This document shows positions 6,584 to 63,458 of a stretch of DNA of 64,000 nt, in pieces. The stretch comes from Octopus vulgaris. Lineage: Eukaryota. The position numbers and the translations under genes are program-made. Below the pieces are notes generated by a model. It worked only from the letters and a program-made list of their open reading frames with translations, did not search any database and was not told the origin of the DNA. How positions within the stretch are numbered: position 1 is the first letter of the stretch; each line of letters starts with the position of its first letter. Location of the stretch: positions 36,580,001 to 36,644,000 of the forward strand of contig OX597837.1 of NCBI GenBank assembly GCA_951406725.2, read 5' to 3'.

Positions 6584-6906
<323 letters not shown>

Positions 6907-7055: not shown

Positions 7056-7150
<95 letters not shown>

Positions 7151-7310
7151 GTGTGGCTATTCTAAAGATGATGAACTGGTGGTGCTCCAGCATGGCTGCA
7201 TGTTTTGAAATCATATAATACGTACGCTTCAGATTTTCGTAATGTATAATAGAAAATACATGCATTGTATATTGACATGTTTCCATCAATTTCTTCATAT
7301 TTTGAAACGC

Positions 7311-7385
7311 TTTAACTGAGGATGGTTTACGTAATGGAGGCATTTCCTAGTATACACTATAGAAACCTGAAACGTACGTATTAAA
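7311..7385 (+). ncRNA. Type I hammerhead ribozyme-like motif with palindromic stem III
   Basis: TTTAA-CTGAGGA(7316-7322)-T-GGTTT...AAACC-T-GAAA(7369-7372). Stem III palindrome ACGTACGT, triplet GUA, stem I TTTAA/TTAAA. Stem II closes with a non-canonical U.U. Confidence 0.65.
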
Positions 7386-7580
7386 TGATTTCTAAATATC
7401 ATGATTTGGTTTGACTTCATTATTGTATCTAATATTACTCGATGCCAGGACAAACTCGTAGGTCTTGCCTCCGCTTATTCACATACTCTTACAACGCAGT
7501 GGAACTGAACCCCGAACCTTATGGTTAGGAAGCAAACTTGTTACCACACAACCATGGCTACCCCTAAAACAAGGATACTA

Positions 7581-7649
7581 CGCCCAACGTGGGGCTTGAA
7601 CCCACGACCCCGCGATTAAGAGTTTCGTGTTCTACTTACTGAGCTAGCC

Positions 7650-7653
<4 letters not shown>
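7581..7653 (-). pseudogene. tRNA-Lys(CTT) pseudogene
   Basis: 73 nt TCCCGGCTAGCTCAGTAAGTAGAACACGAAACTCTTAATCGCGGGGTCGTGGGTTCAAGCCCCACGTTGGGCG. It follows the metazoan tRNA-Lys-CTT sequence but G1, the D-loop GG, the D-stem and the anticodon stem are mutated. Confidence 0.85.
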
Positions 7654-8044: not shown

Positions 8045-8135
<91 letters not shown>

Positions 8136-8477
8136 CATAAGCTTTAAGCTTGAAAGCGTTCACCGTGTTTTGGCTCAAGAAAATAGTCCGACACTGAGGC
8201 TTACGAGTCTTCGACCGATAAGTGGGTAAGTAAAAATGGGAATCCAGCCAACACCTCTTATTTTCGCGATAAGTGTGCTTATAAGAGGTGTCGGCTCGAT
8301 TTACACGCGTACTTATCCATTTCATATGCCGCAGTCATTAGACATATTTTCTGTAGTAAATATACGGAGAACGTTTATAAGCTTTCAGCTTATAATTATT
8401 ATATTCACAGAATTTTCACTCGTCGCTGTTTCTTAACTTACGTAGAATGTCCACACACGCATACATACTCGTGTGTG

Positions 8478-8561
<84 letters not shown>

Positions 8562-8761
8562 CAGATAGATAGATATATCATTTACCTTTTACTTGTTTCA
8601 ATCATTAGACTGCGGCCATACTCTCTCTCTCTCTCTCTTTCTCTCCCAACATAGATAAAAAGAAAGAAAGAAAAAAGATAGATAGATAGATAGATAGATA
8701 AATAGATTGCTAGATAGATATGTAGTTATAGCTAGCTAGTTGGACAGACAGACAGACAGAC

Positions 8762-8865
<104 letters not shown>

Positions 8866-9119
8866 GGATAGATAGATTGATTGATTGATATACATTCCTC
8901 TATTTATTTTGCTGTATTTCTTTATCTATAACTCTCGCTTCCTCTCTCTCTCTCTCTCTCCGTCTCTCTTTTTCTTGGACAAACAATACAGTGATTCTGT
9001 TAATTCTGTAAAAGCAAAACCAAATAAGTTACTGTAATGTTATTTATTACAGATAATGGCTTCAATGGGTGTAATTACTCCATGAAGAGTGAAGATATTT
9101 AGCTCACAAATATAATTCA

Positions 9120-9752
9120 AAGAGCAGACATCACATTGTTATGAACGGAACTGAGAAGGCAAGCGATGATGCTGTCAACAGGATTGGTGGAGTGTGTAGA
9201 CAACAGTGTTATCAACAGGAATAAAAGAACAGTCGGTACATTGTTATTACTGGAATTGGAAGTGCAGACGACAGTGTTATCCACAGAAGTGAAAGAGCAG
9301 ACGATACTCTTGTCAATCGGTTCGGACGAGCAGACGACAGTATTGTCAACGGAACTGAAAGAACAGATCTGTTGTTATTAGTTCGAACGAGCAGACGACA
9401 GAACGAGAGTGTTGTCAACAAAACTAAAAGAGTAAGCCATAATATTATCAACAAAATCGAACGAGAAAACGGCAGTGTTGTCGATACATTTGAAGGAGCA
9501 GGCAATAATATTGTCAACCGATTCGTATGTGCAGACGACAGTATTGTCAACAAGACAGAAAGAGCAGACGATACTGTTGTCAAAATATTTGAGCGAGCAG
9601 ACGACAGTATTCTTTATAGAACGAGACTGTTGTTAACAGAACTGAAAGAACATACAGTAATGTTGTTAGCCAATTCATGGGAGAAGACGACAGAATTCTC
9701 TAGAAAATTGAAAGAGCAGACGATAGCGTTGCCAACCAGTTCGAACGAGCAG
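9120..9752. repeat. Degenerate ~33 bp minisatellite (~19 units)
   Basis: Consensus ~GAGCAGACGACAGTATTGTCAACGGAACTGAAA. Confidence 0.75.
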
Positions 9753-9964
9753 GTTTATAGTATTTTAATTGACTCGTAATTTAGCCTCACCGTGTAAGGC
9801 AAACATCACGGTTAAAGCACACATAAAAAAATACTATCAATAATAATAAGCAAAGTCAACCTCAGCGGAAAATTTGAATCCAGAACGAAGGGACGGGCGA
9901 AATGCCGCTAAGGATTTTGCACTGCGTACTAATAATGATTCTGCCAGCTCGCCGCCTTAGTAAC

Positions 9965-10026
<62 letters not shown>

Positions 10027-10302
10027 GAGGAGGAGGAGGAGGAGGAGGAGGAGGAGGAGGAGGAGGAATGTGCGGTGATTATTTGCTGATGCGTGGTGAT
10101 GACTATCAAACAGATGATAATTGCTGAGATGCACTGCAGAACAGCGGGGATCCAAACAATACGGCATCTATTCATTCTTAATACGTTTATGCAGATTTGG
10201 TCGACAATATGTTAATCACTATTGTTTTTAATCATTAGAGAACACAGCCTTTAGACAATGTCTGTTCATAAAGCACACAGTTCATTAACATAAAGGACTT
10301 AA

Positions 10303-10352
10303 GAAAAAGACACTACGGTGTTTCGACCTCATTGTGTGTCTTCTCAGTTAAA
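10303..10352 (-). ncRNA. Degenerate hammerhead ribozyme-like motif (G8 to A)
   Basis: Minus strand reads CTGAGAA-GAC...GTC-GAAA-CAC-cgta-GTG-T-C. Stem III ACAC/GTGT and GUC triplet are intact; stem I is only 2 bp. Confidence 0.45.
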
Positions 10353-10456
10353 GCTATCCCACTGGGCTGATGATGAAGTTAACAAGTACACGCTTTTGTT
10401 TATAGAAATCGTCAAAGAAATTTTTTGCTGGCGTTTGGTGATGTATACCCAACAGA

Positions 10457-10841
10457 CGTGGAGGCGCAATGGCCCAGTGGTTAGGGCAGCGGACTCGTGG
10501 TCATAGGATCGCGGTTTCGATTCCCAGACCGGGCGTTGTATATTGAGTGAAAACACCTAAAAAGCTCCACGAGGCTCCGACAGGGGATGCTGGTGATCCC
10601 TGCTGTACTCTTTCACCACAACTTTCTCTCACTCTAACTTCCTGTTTCTGTTGTACCTGTATTTCAAAGGGCCGGCCTTGTCACTCTCTGTGTCAGGCTG
10701 AATATCCCCGAGAACTACGTTAAGGGTACACGTGTCTGTGGAGTGCTCAGCCACTTACACGTTAATTTCACGAGCAGGCTGTTCCGTTGATTCAGATCAA
10801 CCGGAACCCTCGTCGTCATAACCGACGGAGTGCTTCCATCC
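10457..10841 (+). mobile_element. SINE family C, full length with 12 bp TSD
   Basis: A box TGGCCCAGTGG, B box GTTTCGATTCC; TSD ATACCCAACAGA at 10445-10456 and 10842-10853. Confidence 0.9.
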
Positions 10842-11049
10842 ATACCCAACAGATAATGATTTACGAGTTGCTCACAGTGGAAGTCCAAACAATAACGTGT
10901 CTATTCGTTCTGGCAAATACAAACATGAATGCACAAATCGCTGTTGTTTTCCGTCATCGGAGAACATTTCATGAAAACTTCTAATTATTATATTTCGTTT
11001 TGGGATTTGGTTTGCAAGATTCTTTATATGAGTTCGTGTGTTGAAGCAT

Positions 11050-11228
11050 ATTCTGTTGTGTTTGGAGAGAGTCATTTTCTTTTTGTGCCTTATTATTTAA
11101 CACACTCACCGGTAAAATTTCCACTTTTAGGAAAATAAAAATAAGAAATAAGTGGGAATTTTACCGCTGAGTGTGTTAAATAATAAGGCACAAAAAGAAA
11201 ATGACTCTCCTCAGTAACACAACAGAAT
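11050..11228. repeat. Long inverted repeat (~77 bp arms, 23 bp spacer)
   Basis: 11050-11126 is the near-exact reverse complement of 11150-11228. Confidence 0.85.
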
Positions 11229-11411
11229 TCTAATTATTATTTTAGTGGAAAATTATTTTATCGTTACCATGAAGGATAAGTAAAGTATTGTCTTTAGTTC
11301 TGGGGCCTCATCCAGAGCCTATTACCCGACTCCCACGGCATATAGATGACCTACATCACAACATGGGACCCACTTACAGCTGAGTGGACTGGAGCAACAT
11401 AAAATGAAATG

Positions 11412-11811
11412 TACTCTTTTACTTGTTTCAGTCAGTTGACTGTGGCCATGCTGGAGCACCGCCTTTAGTCGAGCAACTCGACCCCGGGACTTATTCTTTG
11501 TAAGCCCAGTACTTATTCTATCGGTCTCTTTGGTCGAACCGCTAAGTGACGGGGACATAAACACACCAGCATCGGTTGTCAAGCAATGCTAGGGGGACAA
11601 ACACAGACACACAAACACATACACATACATATATATATACATATATACGACGGGCTTCTTTCAGTTTCCGTCTACCAAATCCACTCACAATGCATTGGTC
11701 GGCCCCGGGGCTATAGCAGAAGACACTTGCCCAGGATGCCACGCAGTGGGACTGAACCCGGAACCATTTGGTTGGTAAGCAAGCTACTTACCACATAGCC
11801 ACTGCTGCGCC
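11412..11811 (-). mobile_element. SINE family A
   Basis: Reverse-complement match to 53296-53733. Confidence 0.85.
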
Positions 11812-12707
11812 TATAAAAGAAATGAAAGCTACACATCATCCGGTCCAGGAAGCGAAACCACGATGGTAGGACCGTGACTACAACACGCCTAACCACTAAG
11901 CCACGTTCCTTCGTCACCTTACGAACAGTAACCTGAAAAATAAACTCGACAGAATACGAACGCAAAACGAAGAGACAACGAAACAACATGCCAATAACAT
12001 TAAACCGGATGCTCTACCGAGTTTGCCCAATGTTAATAATTGGTTTTATTGTGGTTGTTGCTGTTGTTGTTAGTTTTAACTGCCATTGTCACCACTTCCA
12101 GTAGTCTTTCCATTTTATTTTGGGTTTTTTTGTTCTGGAAGTCGGAAGGAGCGGAGTCTTTCAACTGCTCTATTTTCTTATTATTTCATTTGAGGTATTT
12201 TTTCCTTCCATGTTTTTTTTATTTTAATTCTTGAGATTTCTTTCGCAACGCCTGCCCACCCACCCCCACCACCATTTCCCACGTGACGATCGTTTGTGTT
12301 TGGTGGGCGACGGCGGTGACGGCGGCGGCGGTGGAATGCTAGTTGTAGGTGGGAGGTGGGAAGGGGAGTCGGGTAATTTCCCAATCTATTGTTGGGAGTT
12401 ACTTGTTCCGAATTGCAGGCACCAAAACGTAATTTTTCTTACTCTGTGCGTCTGTGTGTGTGTGTGTAAATATATATATGAGTCTATGTGTGTGAGTGTG
12501 TGTGTGTGTGTATATATGTACACACGCAGATATACATACACACACATGCATATACACCTACATACATATATTTATATACATATATATATATATATTCATT
12601 CAACTACTTATATATATATATATATATAAAAGCATATGTGTATATAAATGTACATATATACATCCCAATACAAATATATGCACATACATACATAAACACA
12701 CACACAA

Positions 12708-18542: not shown

Positions 18543-18786
18543 CTGTTTGTTGTCTACACTACCTGTCTTTTGTTTTTTGTTGTTTTTTTGTCTACCAAAT
18601 CCACTCACAAGGTTTTGTTTTTCTCCCCCATTCCTTTATGTAGAAGAGCGTCGGCTCGAAACGTCAAAAACCTCTTCTATCTTTCCTGAGCGTCAAACTA
18701 ATACTCCTCTGTTGTTCTGCACTTGCCTCTTGTCTTCTGGTTCTTTTGGGTTTTTTTGTAGTTTTTATGCTTTCTGTACAATTTGG

Positions 18787-22263: not shown

Positions 22264-22343
22264 AAGTTCGTTATTTCTATAGTGAATCAATTTCGGAATT
22301 AATCTTATAATAGATTTTTTTCCTCTTCAGTAGAAAATACGAA
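22264..22343 (-). ncRNA. Type I hammerhead ribozyme, inverted partner copy
   Basis: Reverse complement of 22482-22560 except one extra A in stem II and one substitution giving a U.C mismatch in stem III. Triplet CUA, predicted cleavage between 22280 and 22279. Confidence 0.75.
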
Positions 22344-22481
22344 GTGGAGAACAGTTCACACGTGTGCTGAGGCTGACCAAGGGATTTTATATTTAGATAT
22401 ATCTGGGGTACTTATTTGTACTCATGATTTTTGCTTCGGCTTTTTTTCCATGGGCGCATGTAAATATTTCATTTATGTCTT

Positions 22482-22560
22482 TTCGTATTTTCTACTGAAG
22501 AGGAAAAAATCTATTATAAGATTAATTCCGAAATTGATTCAATATAGAAATAACGAACTT
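22482..22560 (+). ncRNA. Type I hammerhead ribozyme with canonical core
   Basis: Core CTGAAGA 22495-22501 and GAAA 22530-22533. Stem II GGAA/TTCC plus AATCT/AGATT with loop ATTATA. Stem III ATTG/CAAT with loop ATT. Triplet AUA, predicted cleavage after 22544. Stem I TTTCTA/TAGAAA, a 2x2 internal loop, then TTCGT/ACGAA. Confidence 0.85.
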
Positions 22561-24058: not shown

Positions 24059-24130
24059 TATATTCAACTGATGACGGCAAAGCTTATTTAAAGCAAAGCT
24101 AGAAATTCAGGATCTTGAATTATTCAATAA
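24059..24130 (+). ncRNA. Degenerate hammerhead ribozyme-like motif
   Basis: CTGATGA 24068-24074, stem II GGC..GCTT/AAGC..GCT, GAAA 24102-24105, near-palindromic stem III ATTCAGGA/TCTTGAAT. Stem I is imperfect and out of register by one base. Confidence 0.5.
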
Positions 24131-48447: not shown

Positions 48448-50470
48448 TTATCACAGCTGAGGAGGCTTTGTCGAACTGCGGCGAGAACAAGTCACCAGGA
48501 CTAGATGGTCTCCCCTACGAGCTTTATAACAGTATCAGACTTGTTCGGGCACCTACTGGTATGTGTCCTCACCAACTGATAATAGAATGGGTTTAAACCC
48601 AGATCTGTGAGCCGGGGAGTGGTGACGCTGCTTAGAAAGGAGCCAAACAAGGAGGATATTATAAATAATTTCAGGCCCATCACTCTGTTTAACACAGAAT
48701 TGAATATTTTGGCCAAGATGTTAGCAAAAAAGTTGGCACGTGTCGTGGGTGGAATCGTCGAGGAGGCACAAACTTGTGCCGTTCCTAGCAGATCCATACA
48801 CGACAATCTCCACCTTCTACGCTACACCTTAGAGAGGGTTAACGGGTCTCCTAGCCAGGGTGGGGCGCTGGTTCCTTTAGACCAGTCCAAAGCTTTTGAC
48901 AGGGTTGACCATCGGTATCTTGGGTCGGTTCTCGCGGCATTCGGGCTTGGCCCCGTCTTCCGCGGGTGGATCATTGCTTTATACAGCAACATCGGGTTCT
49001 TCTCGAAGCCGTTCAACATCAAACGCTCGGTTCGTCAAGGGTGTCCTCTATCCCCACTTTCTATAGCCTACGGAAGTTTGAGAGCTTGGGAGGCGTCCCA
49101 CGCGATCTAGGTGGCAGTAGGAAGGTTTCGGCGTATGCGGATGACATCACCATCATCGTGTCCGAGATAGTACACCTACAGAGTGTAGGCAAAGCCATTA
49201 AGGACTACGAGGCGGTGGTAGGAGCATAAGTTAACCGAGATGGGTCAGTCGGCACCTGGAGAGGCAGACGATACCTCCCAACAGCGTCGTAGAGCATTAG
49301 ACGGAGGGCCCGGTTAAAATGCTAGGGTTTGGTTTGGTCCAGACCTCCAGATAGAGAAGAATTGGAGCGAGGTGACAAGCAGGGTGACCTACCAAAATCA
49401 GACCTGGTCTCAGCGGAGGCTATCCCTAAAAGGAAGGACGGAAGTCGAAGGAGTGTTTATCGCTTCTGTGATTACTTACCGCCTAACCGTTGTGCCGTGC
49501 CCCATTCGTGGACGATCAAGTTGGAGCGGCTGCTCTTCTGCTTTTTGTGGAGTGGTAGAAGTCCTCTTGTAAAGCGCCCTGTCTACTGCCAGCACACGCT
49601 AAAGAGTGGGCTAGGGATGCCTTGGCTGTTGATGCGCAGACATGCGCTGAGGCCGAGGTATATGTGGCTCTACCTGGATGGTGAACAGGTGTGGTCTCCG
49701 TTCGTTCGGTCGTTACTTCCTGAGTTTACTAGTTTGAGTGAACTAGGACCTTGGATCAAGTGTAGACCAAAGTTGGGTGCTTGGCGAGCGGAGTGTCGTG
49801 AGGCACTCAAGCTTCTTTGTCACACGGGCAACACCAGTGGCGGGGGTTCCACCTCCGCTTTCTATAGAGGGCTGGAAGAAACTCAGTGTGACGACCTCCT
49901 GGGGAAGACTAGGCTTCGATGGGAATCAACTAAGCAGTCTATTCCGAAGGACATTCGGACCAGGACCCTTGGATAACTTCCAGGGATCCCTGACCTAGCA
50001 GTGTTACCGAGGAGCCTTACCAGTTCGCGATAAACTCGCAAGGCATGGTGCCCCTTGCGCACCCACGTGTCCAAGACGCGAGCAGGACAGGGAAATCGTT
50101 CTGCACGCAATTGTGCAATGCCTCAAAATCTCTGAGTTGTGGGTTTACGTTGAACATCTGCTGTCACGGCTGGGAAGAGTACAACTGTCTTCCGAGTCGG
50201 TTGTAAAGATTGTTCCTCCTGCCTCTTTTAACAAAGAAGGCAAGGCTTGTTTTCTCGCTGTGGTCGCTACAGCGAAAGAAGCTGTATGGAAGACCCGCGT
50301 GAAAGGAATCGTGACAGGTACACTCATCTCCAGCCTTGGACTGGTCCATTACTTCATCTACCACCTTAAGAGGAAAATAAGGGTGGAGAGAAAATGCCTG
50401 TAACCTGATGTATATGGAAAAAAGATGGAAGGCTGTGGCGCGTTTGTTGCGAATGAATGAACCCACATGG
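48448..50470 (+). mobile_element. Decayed 5'-truncated L1/Tx1-clade LINE ORF2 (reverse transcriptase and C-terminus)
   Basis: KSPGLDGLPYE, FRPITLFNTELNILAK, LDQSKAFDRVDH, VRQGCPLSPL, SAYADDIT and GLGMP motifs; multiple stops and frameshifts. Confidence 0.92.
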
Positions 50471-62905: not shown

Positions 62906-63271
62906 TTTTCAAGAATATTCTGAAAGTCTACATATGTCTGTTTGTGCTATCAACTTAAATTTTATAAAGGTAGATGCATTCTTTAAACAAGTATCGTTTC
63001 TTTTCTTCTTGCCTTTGCTTCTTTGTCTCTTTCTTACTCCACTTCATGAAGAGTTTATCCGAAACGTCAGTTTCTTCGTTTCTTTTTCCTTTTTCTTTTT
63101 TCAGTGTATAATTCATTATACGCCACCTTTTATCTCAATATGTGTGTGTGTATGTGTGTTTACATTTCCTCTGCCGCCTTTTGAATTTTGGCATATATAT
63201 ATAAATGTATGTAGCACGCACATATTTATGTGTGTATATATATATGTATATATGTACGCAAATATATATAT

Positions 63272-63458
63272 AGGGAGAGTTTACGAAAAAAACAAAAGAC
63301 GAAGACAGATGGTGTACAAAACAAACAGATGTATTAGTATAACGCTCGGGAATAGAAAAAGTCTTTTACGTTTCGAGCCTACGCTCTTCTACAGAAAGGG
63401 ACACAGAAAAAAACAAGGAGAGAAACAAGGAGAGAGAAAAAATGTGTGTAGTGGCTAA
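63272..63458 (-). mobile_element. Second copy of the 6706-6906 repeat
   Basis: Direct sequence match, preceded by TA repeats; same HHR-like motif at 63363-63398. Confidence 0.65.

Follow-up and report, generated by a model that had tools for sequence, protein, structure and literature searches.

Positions 7200-7494 of the window (the whole 64,000-nt stretch of Octopus vulgaris DNA that was analyzed) are very probably the dead end of a Penelope-like element (PLE), in which a terminal repeat (pseudo-LTR) with a hammerhead motif stands beside an inverted, truncated arm left by integration. The window is animal DNA in which microsatellites and SINE-like repeats abound, and the repeat pieces flanking 7200-7494 likewise look like SINEs. 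The direct (right) arm contains the following hammerhead features.

7299-7397, plus strand: type I hammerhead motif, core letters intact, six stem mismatches
7299-7315 with 7381-7397, plus strand: stem I, with 5 bp, a 2x2 loop, and then about 10 bp
7316-7322, plus strand: CUGAGGA core half
7323-7368, plus strand: stem II, long
7369-7372, plus strand: GAAA box
7372-7379, plus strand: 8-nt palindrome ACGUACGU, forming stem III
A7380, plus strand: GUA triplet, with the predicted cut after this letter

The motif at 7299-7397 is complete, its stem III is palindromic, and CUGANGA, GAAA, and NUH are present in order with stems I and II, as in type I hammerheads. A plus-strand hammerhead-like fold had been proposed at 7311-7385 in a first-pass annotation; it was borne out with a stem I longer than claimed, both sequence strings quoted in its support were found (at 7207-7232 and 7367-7392), and the view of it as a hammerhead of Penelope type, its stem III being a palindrome, was supported. 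When the hammerhead descriptor was run on 6 Mb of Markov sequence, no match was obtained at the stringency of this motif, and a looser descriptor gave one match, corresponding to 0.017 expected in the window vs three seen. Rfam searches of 7160-7460 gave seven weak matches, none of them to a hammerhead family, and no hammerhead was present among the 150 matches listed of 341 for the whole window, those being driven by microsatellites.

Minimum-energy folding of the 7299-7397 copy did not give the hammerhead (z 0.82), and the hammerhead-constrained ensemble was at -8.2 kcal/mol vs -14.4 kcal/mol for the free one, a penalty of about 6 kcal/mol. The palindrome at 7372-7379 was predicted to form a homoduplex of -9.8 kcal/mol. 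The six mismatches lie in the outer stem I and in the first 14 pairs of stem II, and the copy has probably lost its ribozyme activity.

A pyrimidine-rich run lies just 5' of the hammerhead, in a 64-nt stretch (7255-7318) that is devoid of AG and has a branch-point-like word near 7272. Judged by eye, this stretch may represent the 3' terminus of an intron, comparable to some Penelope elements.

The direct arm as a whole belongs to a dispersed repeat.

7268-7494, plus strand: direct arm, member of a dispersed-repeat family, read as pseudo-LTR plus the start of the internal region
7494-7566, plus strand: SINE-like fragment where the direct arm breaks off, with 12 other matches in the window and a summed depth above 500,000 in run X1

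The evidence for the family came from contigs of four (X1, X2, X7, and X13) of 24 public runs, collected for 7150-7652 at 80% likeness. Run X7 was guessed to be RNA; its single locus contig (7367-7544) may be DNA, and the run was not counted as evidence of expression. The family pile-up spans 7268 to about 7456, two pieces match up to 7494, and the family letter at 7393 was carried by 106, 109, and 110 contigs in the DNA runs X1, X2, and X13, respectively. Summed family depth in X1 reached 22,328 vs 41 for the locus contig, figures that do not stand for copy number. The locus itself was covered by one contig per run, with one difference in X1 (7150-7554) and two in X2, and the X13 contig (7175-7549), which comes from a different organism, had 19 differences in 375 positions (approximately 5% divergence). 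The finding of one locus-spanning contig in each of X1, X2, and X13 indicates that the structure is genuine, has become fixed, and predates that split.

The commonest other family letter restores Watson-Crick pairing at five of the six stem mismatches, and its share of the depth was 95% at 7323 (in X1), 95% at 7393, 89% at 7308, 74% at 7357, and 48% at 7361. The sixth mismatch (7329/7362) is unexplained by the 40 variants listed of 109. A family consensus had been proposed earlier as a check on the fold, and in it the core nucleotides were not lost: no change at core positions occurred among these 40 variants, the contigs having been chosen by 80% likeness to the 7268-7494 copy, with a bias toward an intact core. 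The palindrome shows CpG-type changes in 20-26% of the family depth, and an A-U pair closes the base of stem II in the family.

Beyond the SINE-like fragment, a decayed tRNA-like copy is present at about 7574-7650 on the minus strand. It was not called by ARAGORN and had 7-8 contigs in each of the DNA runs X1 and X13; by eye, we take it to resemble tRNA-Lys(CTT). The exact 22-nt pattern gave no match in metagenome contigs, and a looser hammerhead pattern gave one match there (contig L001) and none in viral contigs. The match in L001 (1-1107, minus strand) was rejected as chance, as it is antisense to a long frame, gives no hammerhead fold, and shares 15 nt with the window; the opposite strand is an open frame of approximately 290 codons with no credible Pfam family.

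To the left of the direct arm lie an inverted arm and the junction between the two.

7178-7200, plus strand: short piece of a common SINE-like repeat, bordering the inverted arm on its outer side, with matches of 15-23 nt at nine other places in the window
7200-7266, minus strand: inverted, 5'-truncated arm, a copy of 7333-7399 with 53 of 67 columns identical and no gaps
7267-7271, no strand assigned: head-to-head junction of the inverted and direct arms, possibly with an overlap of a few bases; the arm match ends at 7266

The left arm is the reverse complement of 7333-7399, and the score of this ungapped match (78) was reached by none of 5,000 shuffles, the maximum of which was 43. A diverged reverse complement of the 3' half, previously placed at 7201-7262, was thereby confirmed and slightly lengthened. 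The arm comprises the 3' strand of stem II, the GAAA box, the palindrome, the cut triplet, and the 3' strand of stem I; it has no CUGANGA on the minus strand, the 5' strand is missing from both stem I and stem II, and a G (7227) occupies the A15.1 position. It is only half a hammerhead, the locus is one hammerhead and a half, and the description of the locus as a ‘divergent hammerhead pair’ had to be abandoned. Family contigs begin matching at 7267-7268, i.e., at the junction, and the locus contig of X13 has A at 7267, which extends the arm match by one. The left arm ends 25 nt short of the main 3' end of the family.

The two arms differ at 14 of 67 columns. When the changes were polarized by the family letter, approximately seven were private to the left arm (five of these calls rest on the absence of a listed family variant), six to the right arm, and one to both, which amounts to about eight and seven changes in the 67 columns of the left and right arms, respectively. 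A minority family letter at 7355 (28% of the depth) is common to the arms, and this sharing, together with the split of the private changes, suggests that both arms were made from one template and then decayed independently. The sequence differences fit a decay of about 10% in each arm.

It could be argued that the arrangement has been kept for a function, the minus-strand half being a substrate or partner in trans, or the hairpin of the two arms a regulatory double-stranded RNA. The locus is fixed in the runs of three organisms, the right arm has kept its core letters, and for a transcript reading through both arms a long hairpin was predicted on either strand (-67 and -72 kcal/mol). However, the predicted hairpin (-67 kcal/mol) buries the 3' half of the ribozyme, which argues against a designed pair, and the 14 arm differences show no sign of matched change between the arms. 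Furthermore, the left arm has lost A15.1, the right arm has lost six stem pairs, and the locus differs in the other organism at the 19 of 375 positions mentioned above. We therefore consider a kept function very improbable.

Opposite-strand junctions were also present in other copies of the family. The family contigs contained 13 listed joints, 12 of which were on opposite strands (five in X1, five in X2, six in X13, and none in X7, each in one contig per run), and four of the 12 were found in two runs. The depths of the X1 junctions (28-50) matched the locus depth of 41. At joints near 7300, the side lengths of 42-65 letters fit arms that both run 3'-ward, and from such side lengths we infer that the other junctions are head to head as well. 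None of these joints equals that of the locus (direct arm from 7268, inverted arm from 7333), suggesting that the inversion was made anew at each insertion. The inversion was seen in five to six of more than 100 family contigs per run, many being hidden by the shortness of contigs. The inverted layout recurs in the family but may not be obligatory. The first-pass annotation had called the layout a ‘recurring product or design’; the 12 opposite-strand junctions uphold the product, whereas the differing junctions and the independent decay of the arms speak against the design.

A second divergent locus is present in the window.

22264-22343 and 22482-22560, no strand assigned: two whole hammerheads head to head, of an unrelated family, 78 of 80 columns identical

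Each arm of 22264-22560 folds with a z of about -2.4, and we regard the pair as a much younger insertion of an unrelated family. Homology between the 7200-7494 family and this pair was rejected, as the score of 25 was reached by 773 and 492 of 2,000 shuffles, in keeping with the earlier claim that the two loci are unrelated in sequence. The accompanying claim of the same architecture was correct for the orientation but not for the arms, both of which are whole at 22264-22560, whereas the left arm at 7200-7266 is a half-motif. The two divergent loci would have arisen separately, one recently and the other long ago, through the same manner of integration. The presence of the layout at 22264-22560 and the inverted arms of 67 nt could also be explained by a small palindromic element moving as one fixed unit, either MITE-like or non-autonomous with both arms required. 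This explanation is largely refuted by the contigs, which hold 12 different junctions elsewhere, none matching that of the locus; in addition, the depth across the 7267-7271 junction is at the single-locus level and the family sequence extends 95 nt past the end of the right arm. A fixed unit is accordingly given very little credence.

Other hammerhead-like sequences were observed in the window. A multi-copy repeat at 6700-6905 (minus-strand core at 6830), 63265-63458 (core at 63394), and 18633-18747 has a minimal core with CUGUAGA instead of CUGANGA, 4-bp stems, and a CG palindrome. The CUGUAGA variant is common to two of the repeat copies, which are 92% alike, and may be a family trait; the repeat would represent a third family of Penelope type or else a derived element similar to SINEs. 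At 24068 (plus strand), a weak, degenerate hammerhead-like motif has CUGAUGA, a 3-bp stem II, a 6-bp stem I, and a near-palindromic stem III.

In six of the 12 opposite-strand junctions, one arm starts from the 5' edge of stem I (7297-7305) and the other from the base of stem II (7363-7370). The offset in these six is 65-69 nt, and it is 65-66 nt at the 7200-7494 locus. A TGAAA word shared at the six joins would give a small palindrome. The six may represent only three or four loci, and their detection is biased. It is conceivable, albeit doubtful, that the hammerhead fold itself helps to set where Penelope reverse transcription stops and turns; if this were true genome-wide, ribozyme structure, apart from cutting, would shape inverted insertions. 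We found no account of the 7268-7494 family or of hammerhead-clustered junctions in the literature; the figures of Cervera and de la Pena (2014) and the repeat library of PMC13282606 may hold one.

Two further features of the direct arm bear on its Penelope-like identity.

7306-7494, plus strand: probable reading-frame remnant overlapping the hammerhead, 63 codons with five stops
7425-7456, plus strand: candidate optional tail of 32 nt, bounded by the two 3' ends at which family pieces preferentially stop

All five stops of the 7306 frame fall at codons where the family majority letter differs, compared with one of eight stops in the other two plus-strand frames and a baseline of 15 of 63 codons. 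No ATG was seen in the 7306-7494 frame, and protein searches with the 63 codons found no relative at longer or similar lengths, which is weak evidence. In PLEs, the first codons of the gene are described as lying within the repeat (Arkhipova et al. 2013, PMC3846280), and a pseudo-LTR reaching into the beginning of a gene would be expected to give such a stop pattern (PMC3846280; PMC11167929). Judging from the pattern of stops, a coding frame probably overlapped the hammerhead and ran to 7494, where the SINE-like piece cuts the copy off, and it was probably the 5' part of the element's gene.

The 3' ends of 22 family pieces (among the 32 listed of 9,745) were at 7421-7425 in 13, at 7453-7456 in five, at 7494 in two, and at 7397-7399 in two, some pieces probably being one locus seen in two runs. 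The two preferred ends suggest a 32-nt optional tail, which may in part be an alignment effect: six private changes at 7425-7436 could stop alignments just past 7424, weakening the signal. A tail of 30-40 bp is frequent at one end of PLEs (Craig et al. 2021, PMC8557442), and it has been linked with the use of two sites at which reverse transcription starts (Frangieh et al. 2024, PMC11167929).

Pfam searches near the locus detected no RT or GIY-YIG in 15 frames (the three plus-strand frames of 7150-7652 and six frames each of 8130-9860 and 10100-12400). The search for a target-site duplication, a feature that PLEs may or may not have, gave none that was credible, the two candidates both lying inside the element sequence. 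Only one direct hammerhead unit was found, with no second direct copy in the window.

Two coding-like regions elsewhere in the window were noted in these searches. A frameshifted LINE remnant at 48586-50403 (plus strand) matched RVT_1 (E 2.5e-15) and zf-RVT (E 2.6e-4) and presumably belongs, from its L1/Tx1-like look, to something other than a Penelope enzyme; the ARAGORN call of tRNA-Leu(CAA) inside it (49773-49865, plus strand) is probably spurious. A low-complexity repeat of degenerate units of about 45 nt at 9212-9779 holds a 184-aa open frame with repeated ‘ERADD’ words and no credible Pfam family.

The absence of an enzyme gene linked to the 7268-7494 family and of a target-site duplication would also be compatible with a non-coding hammerhead repeat (retrozyme- or SINE-like) that has no PLE gene and whose inverted arm was added later by fold-back DNA repair, aided by the self-complementarity of the motif. 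The long stem I with its internal loop, like that of canonical type I hammerheads, and the presence of the inversion in only five to six contigs per run point in the same direction. On the other hand, there is one direct unit and no tandem array, the coding-frame signal runs across the hammerhead motif, and the head-to-head junctions recur at many different points. The private changes are, moreover, about equal in the two arms, which indicates that these are of about the same age. Such a repeat is thus improbable, and the locus appears to be Penelope-like in identity. Points that weigh against the Penelope-like reading, besides the unlinked enzyme gene and the missing target-site duplication, are the end of the left arm 25 nt before the main family 3' end, the negative Rfam result, the unexplained 7329/7362 mismatch, and the A-U pair at the base of stem II.

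According to the Penelope-like reading, the terminal repeat of the element would carry a type I hammerhead whose stem III, a palindrome, is too short for stability on its own. The ribozyme role would belong to the living element, the RNA of which may be cut after 7380 either when tandem copies act as a dimer or with the help of protein, as drawn from published PLE work. During integration, reverse transcription would yield the direct copy from 7268 onward and also a shorter, 5'-truncated opposite copy (7200-7266) joined to it head to head, with the junction position set anew at each insertion. Both arms would then decay neutrally, with SINE-like pieces now bounding the two ends. By analogy with described insertions, the inverted arm would be a known, ordinary by-product of Penelope-like insertion.

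The locus alone matters little, since retroelement remains of this sort have been described before. What it contributes is a further Penelope-type family that bears a hammerhead, in which the palindrome of stem III is 8 nt and the closing pair is A-U, and the many junctions of the family can be used for the open question of how PLEs build inverted ends. In O. vulgaris, 31 recently active Penelope-like families have been reported in a paper whose main text does not deal with hammerheads (PMC13282606).

In published accounts, PLEs often have an inverted, 5'-truncated copy next to their 5' end (Craig et al. 2021, PMC8557442), and head to head is the commonest arrangement, for which self-priming was proposed (Arkhipova et al. 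2013, PMC3846280). Like the endonuclease-bearing PLE insertions of these accounts, 7200-7494 has a head-to-head, 5'-truncated inverted arm beside a direct arm, a hammerhead inside the repeat, a repeat that probably overlaps the start of a reading frame (7306-7494), and two preferred 3' ends about 32 nt apart, the last being suggestive only. Unlike them, it is a 295-nt stub with no enzyme gene seen and no target-site duplication, and both of its outer ends have been replaced by SINE-like pieces. The canonical hammerhead at 7299-7397 argues against the Naiad and Chlamys clades. The hammerhead studied by Frangieh et al. (2024, PMC11167929) was assisted by protein, and insertion in vitro could take place without it.

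Hammerheads of PLE terminal repeats have a long stem II and a palindromic stem III, their activity is low, and dimers are needed (Cervera and de la Pena 2014, PMC4209133), the cleavage as dimers being summarized also in a review (PMC6765202). The 7299-7397 motif resembles these metazoan hammerheads in its type I topology, intact CUGANGA and GAAA, long stem II, and palindromic stem III, and differs from those of PMC4209133 in its 8-nt palindrome and in a long stem I interrupted by an internal loop. The minimal PLE hammerhead published there has a bulge and G10.1-C11.1 at the base of stem II, whereas the present family closes stem II by A-U. ‘Dual min-HHRs’ on opposite strands, approximately 100-700 bp apart, are likewise described by Cervera and de la Pena (2014, PMC4209133), so that an opposite-strand neighbor at a spacing of 100-700 bp has already been reported; unlike in those dual hammerheads, the opposite-strand partner at 7200-7266 is half a motif only. 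Finally, retrozymes are defined by tandem units (bioRxiv 10.64898/2026.07.22.740005). The locus resembles animal non-LTR retrozymes in that its type I hammerhead lies within a short repeat akin to the PLE pseudo-LTR, and it differs from them in having a single hammerhead instead of a tandem array and a probable coding-frame remnant that overlaps the motif.
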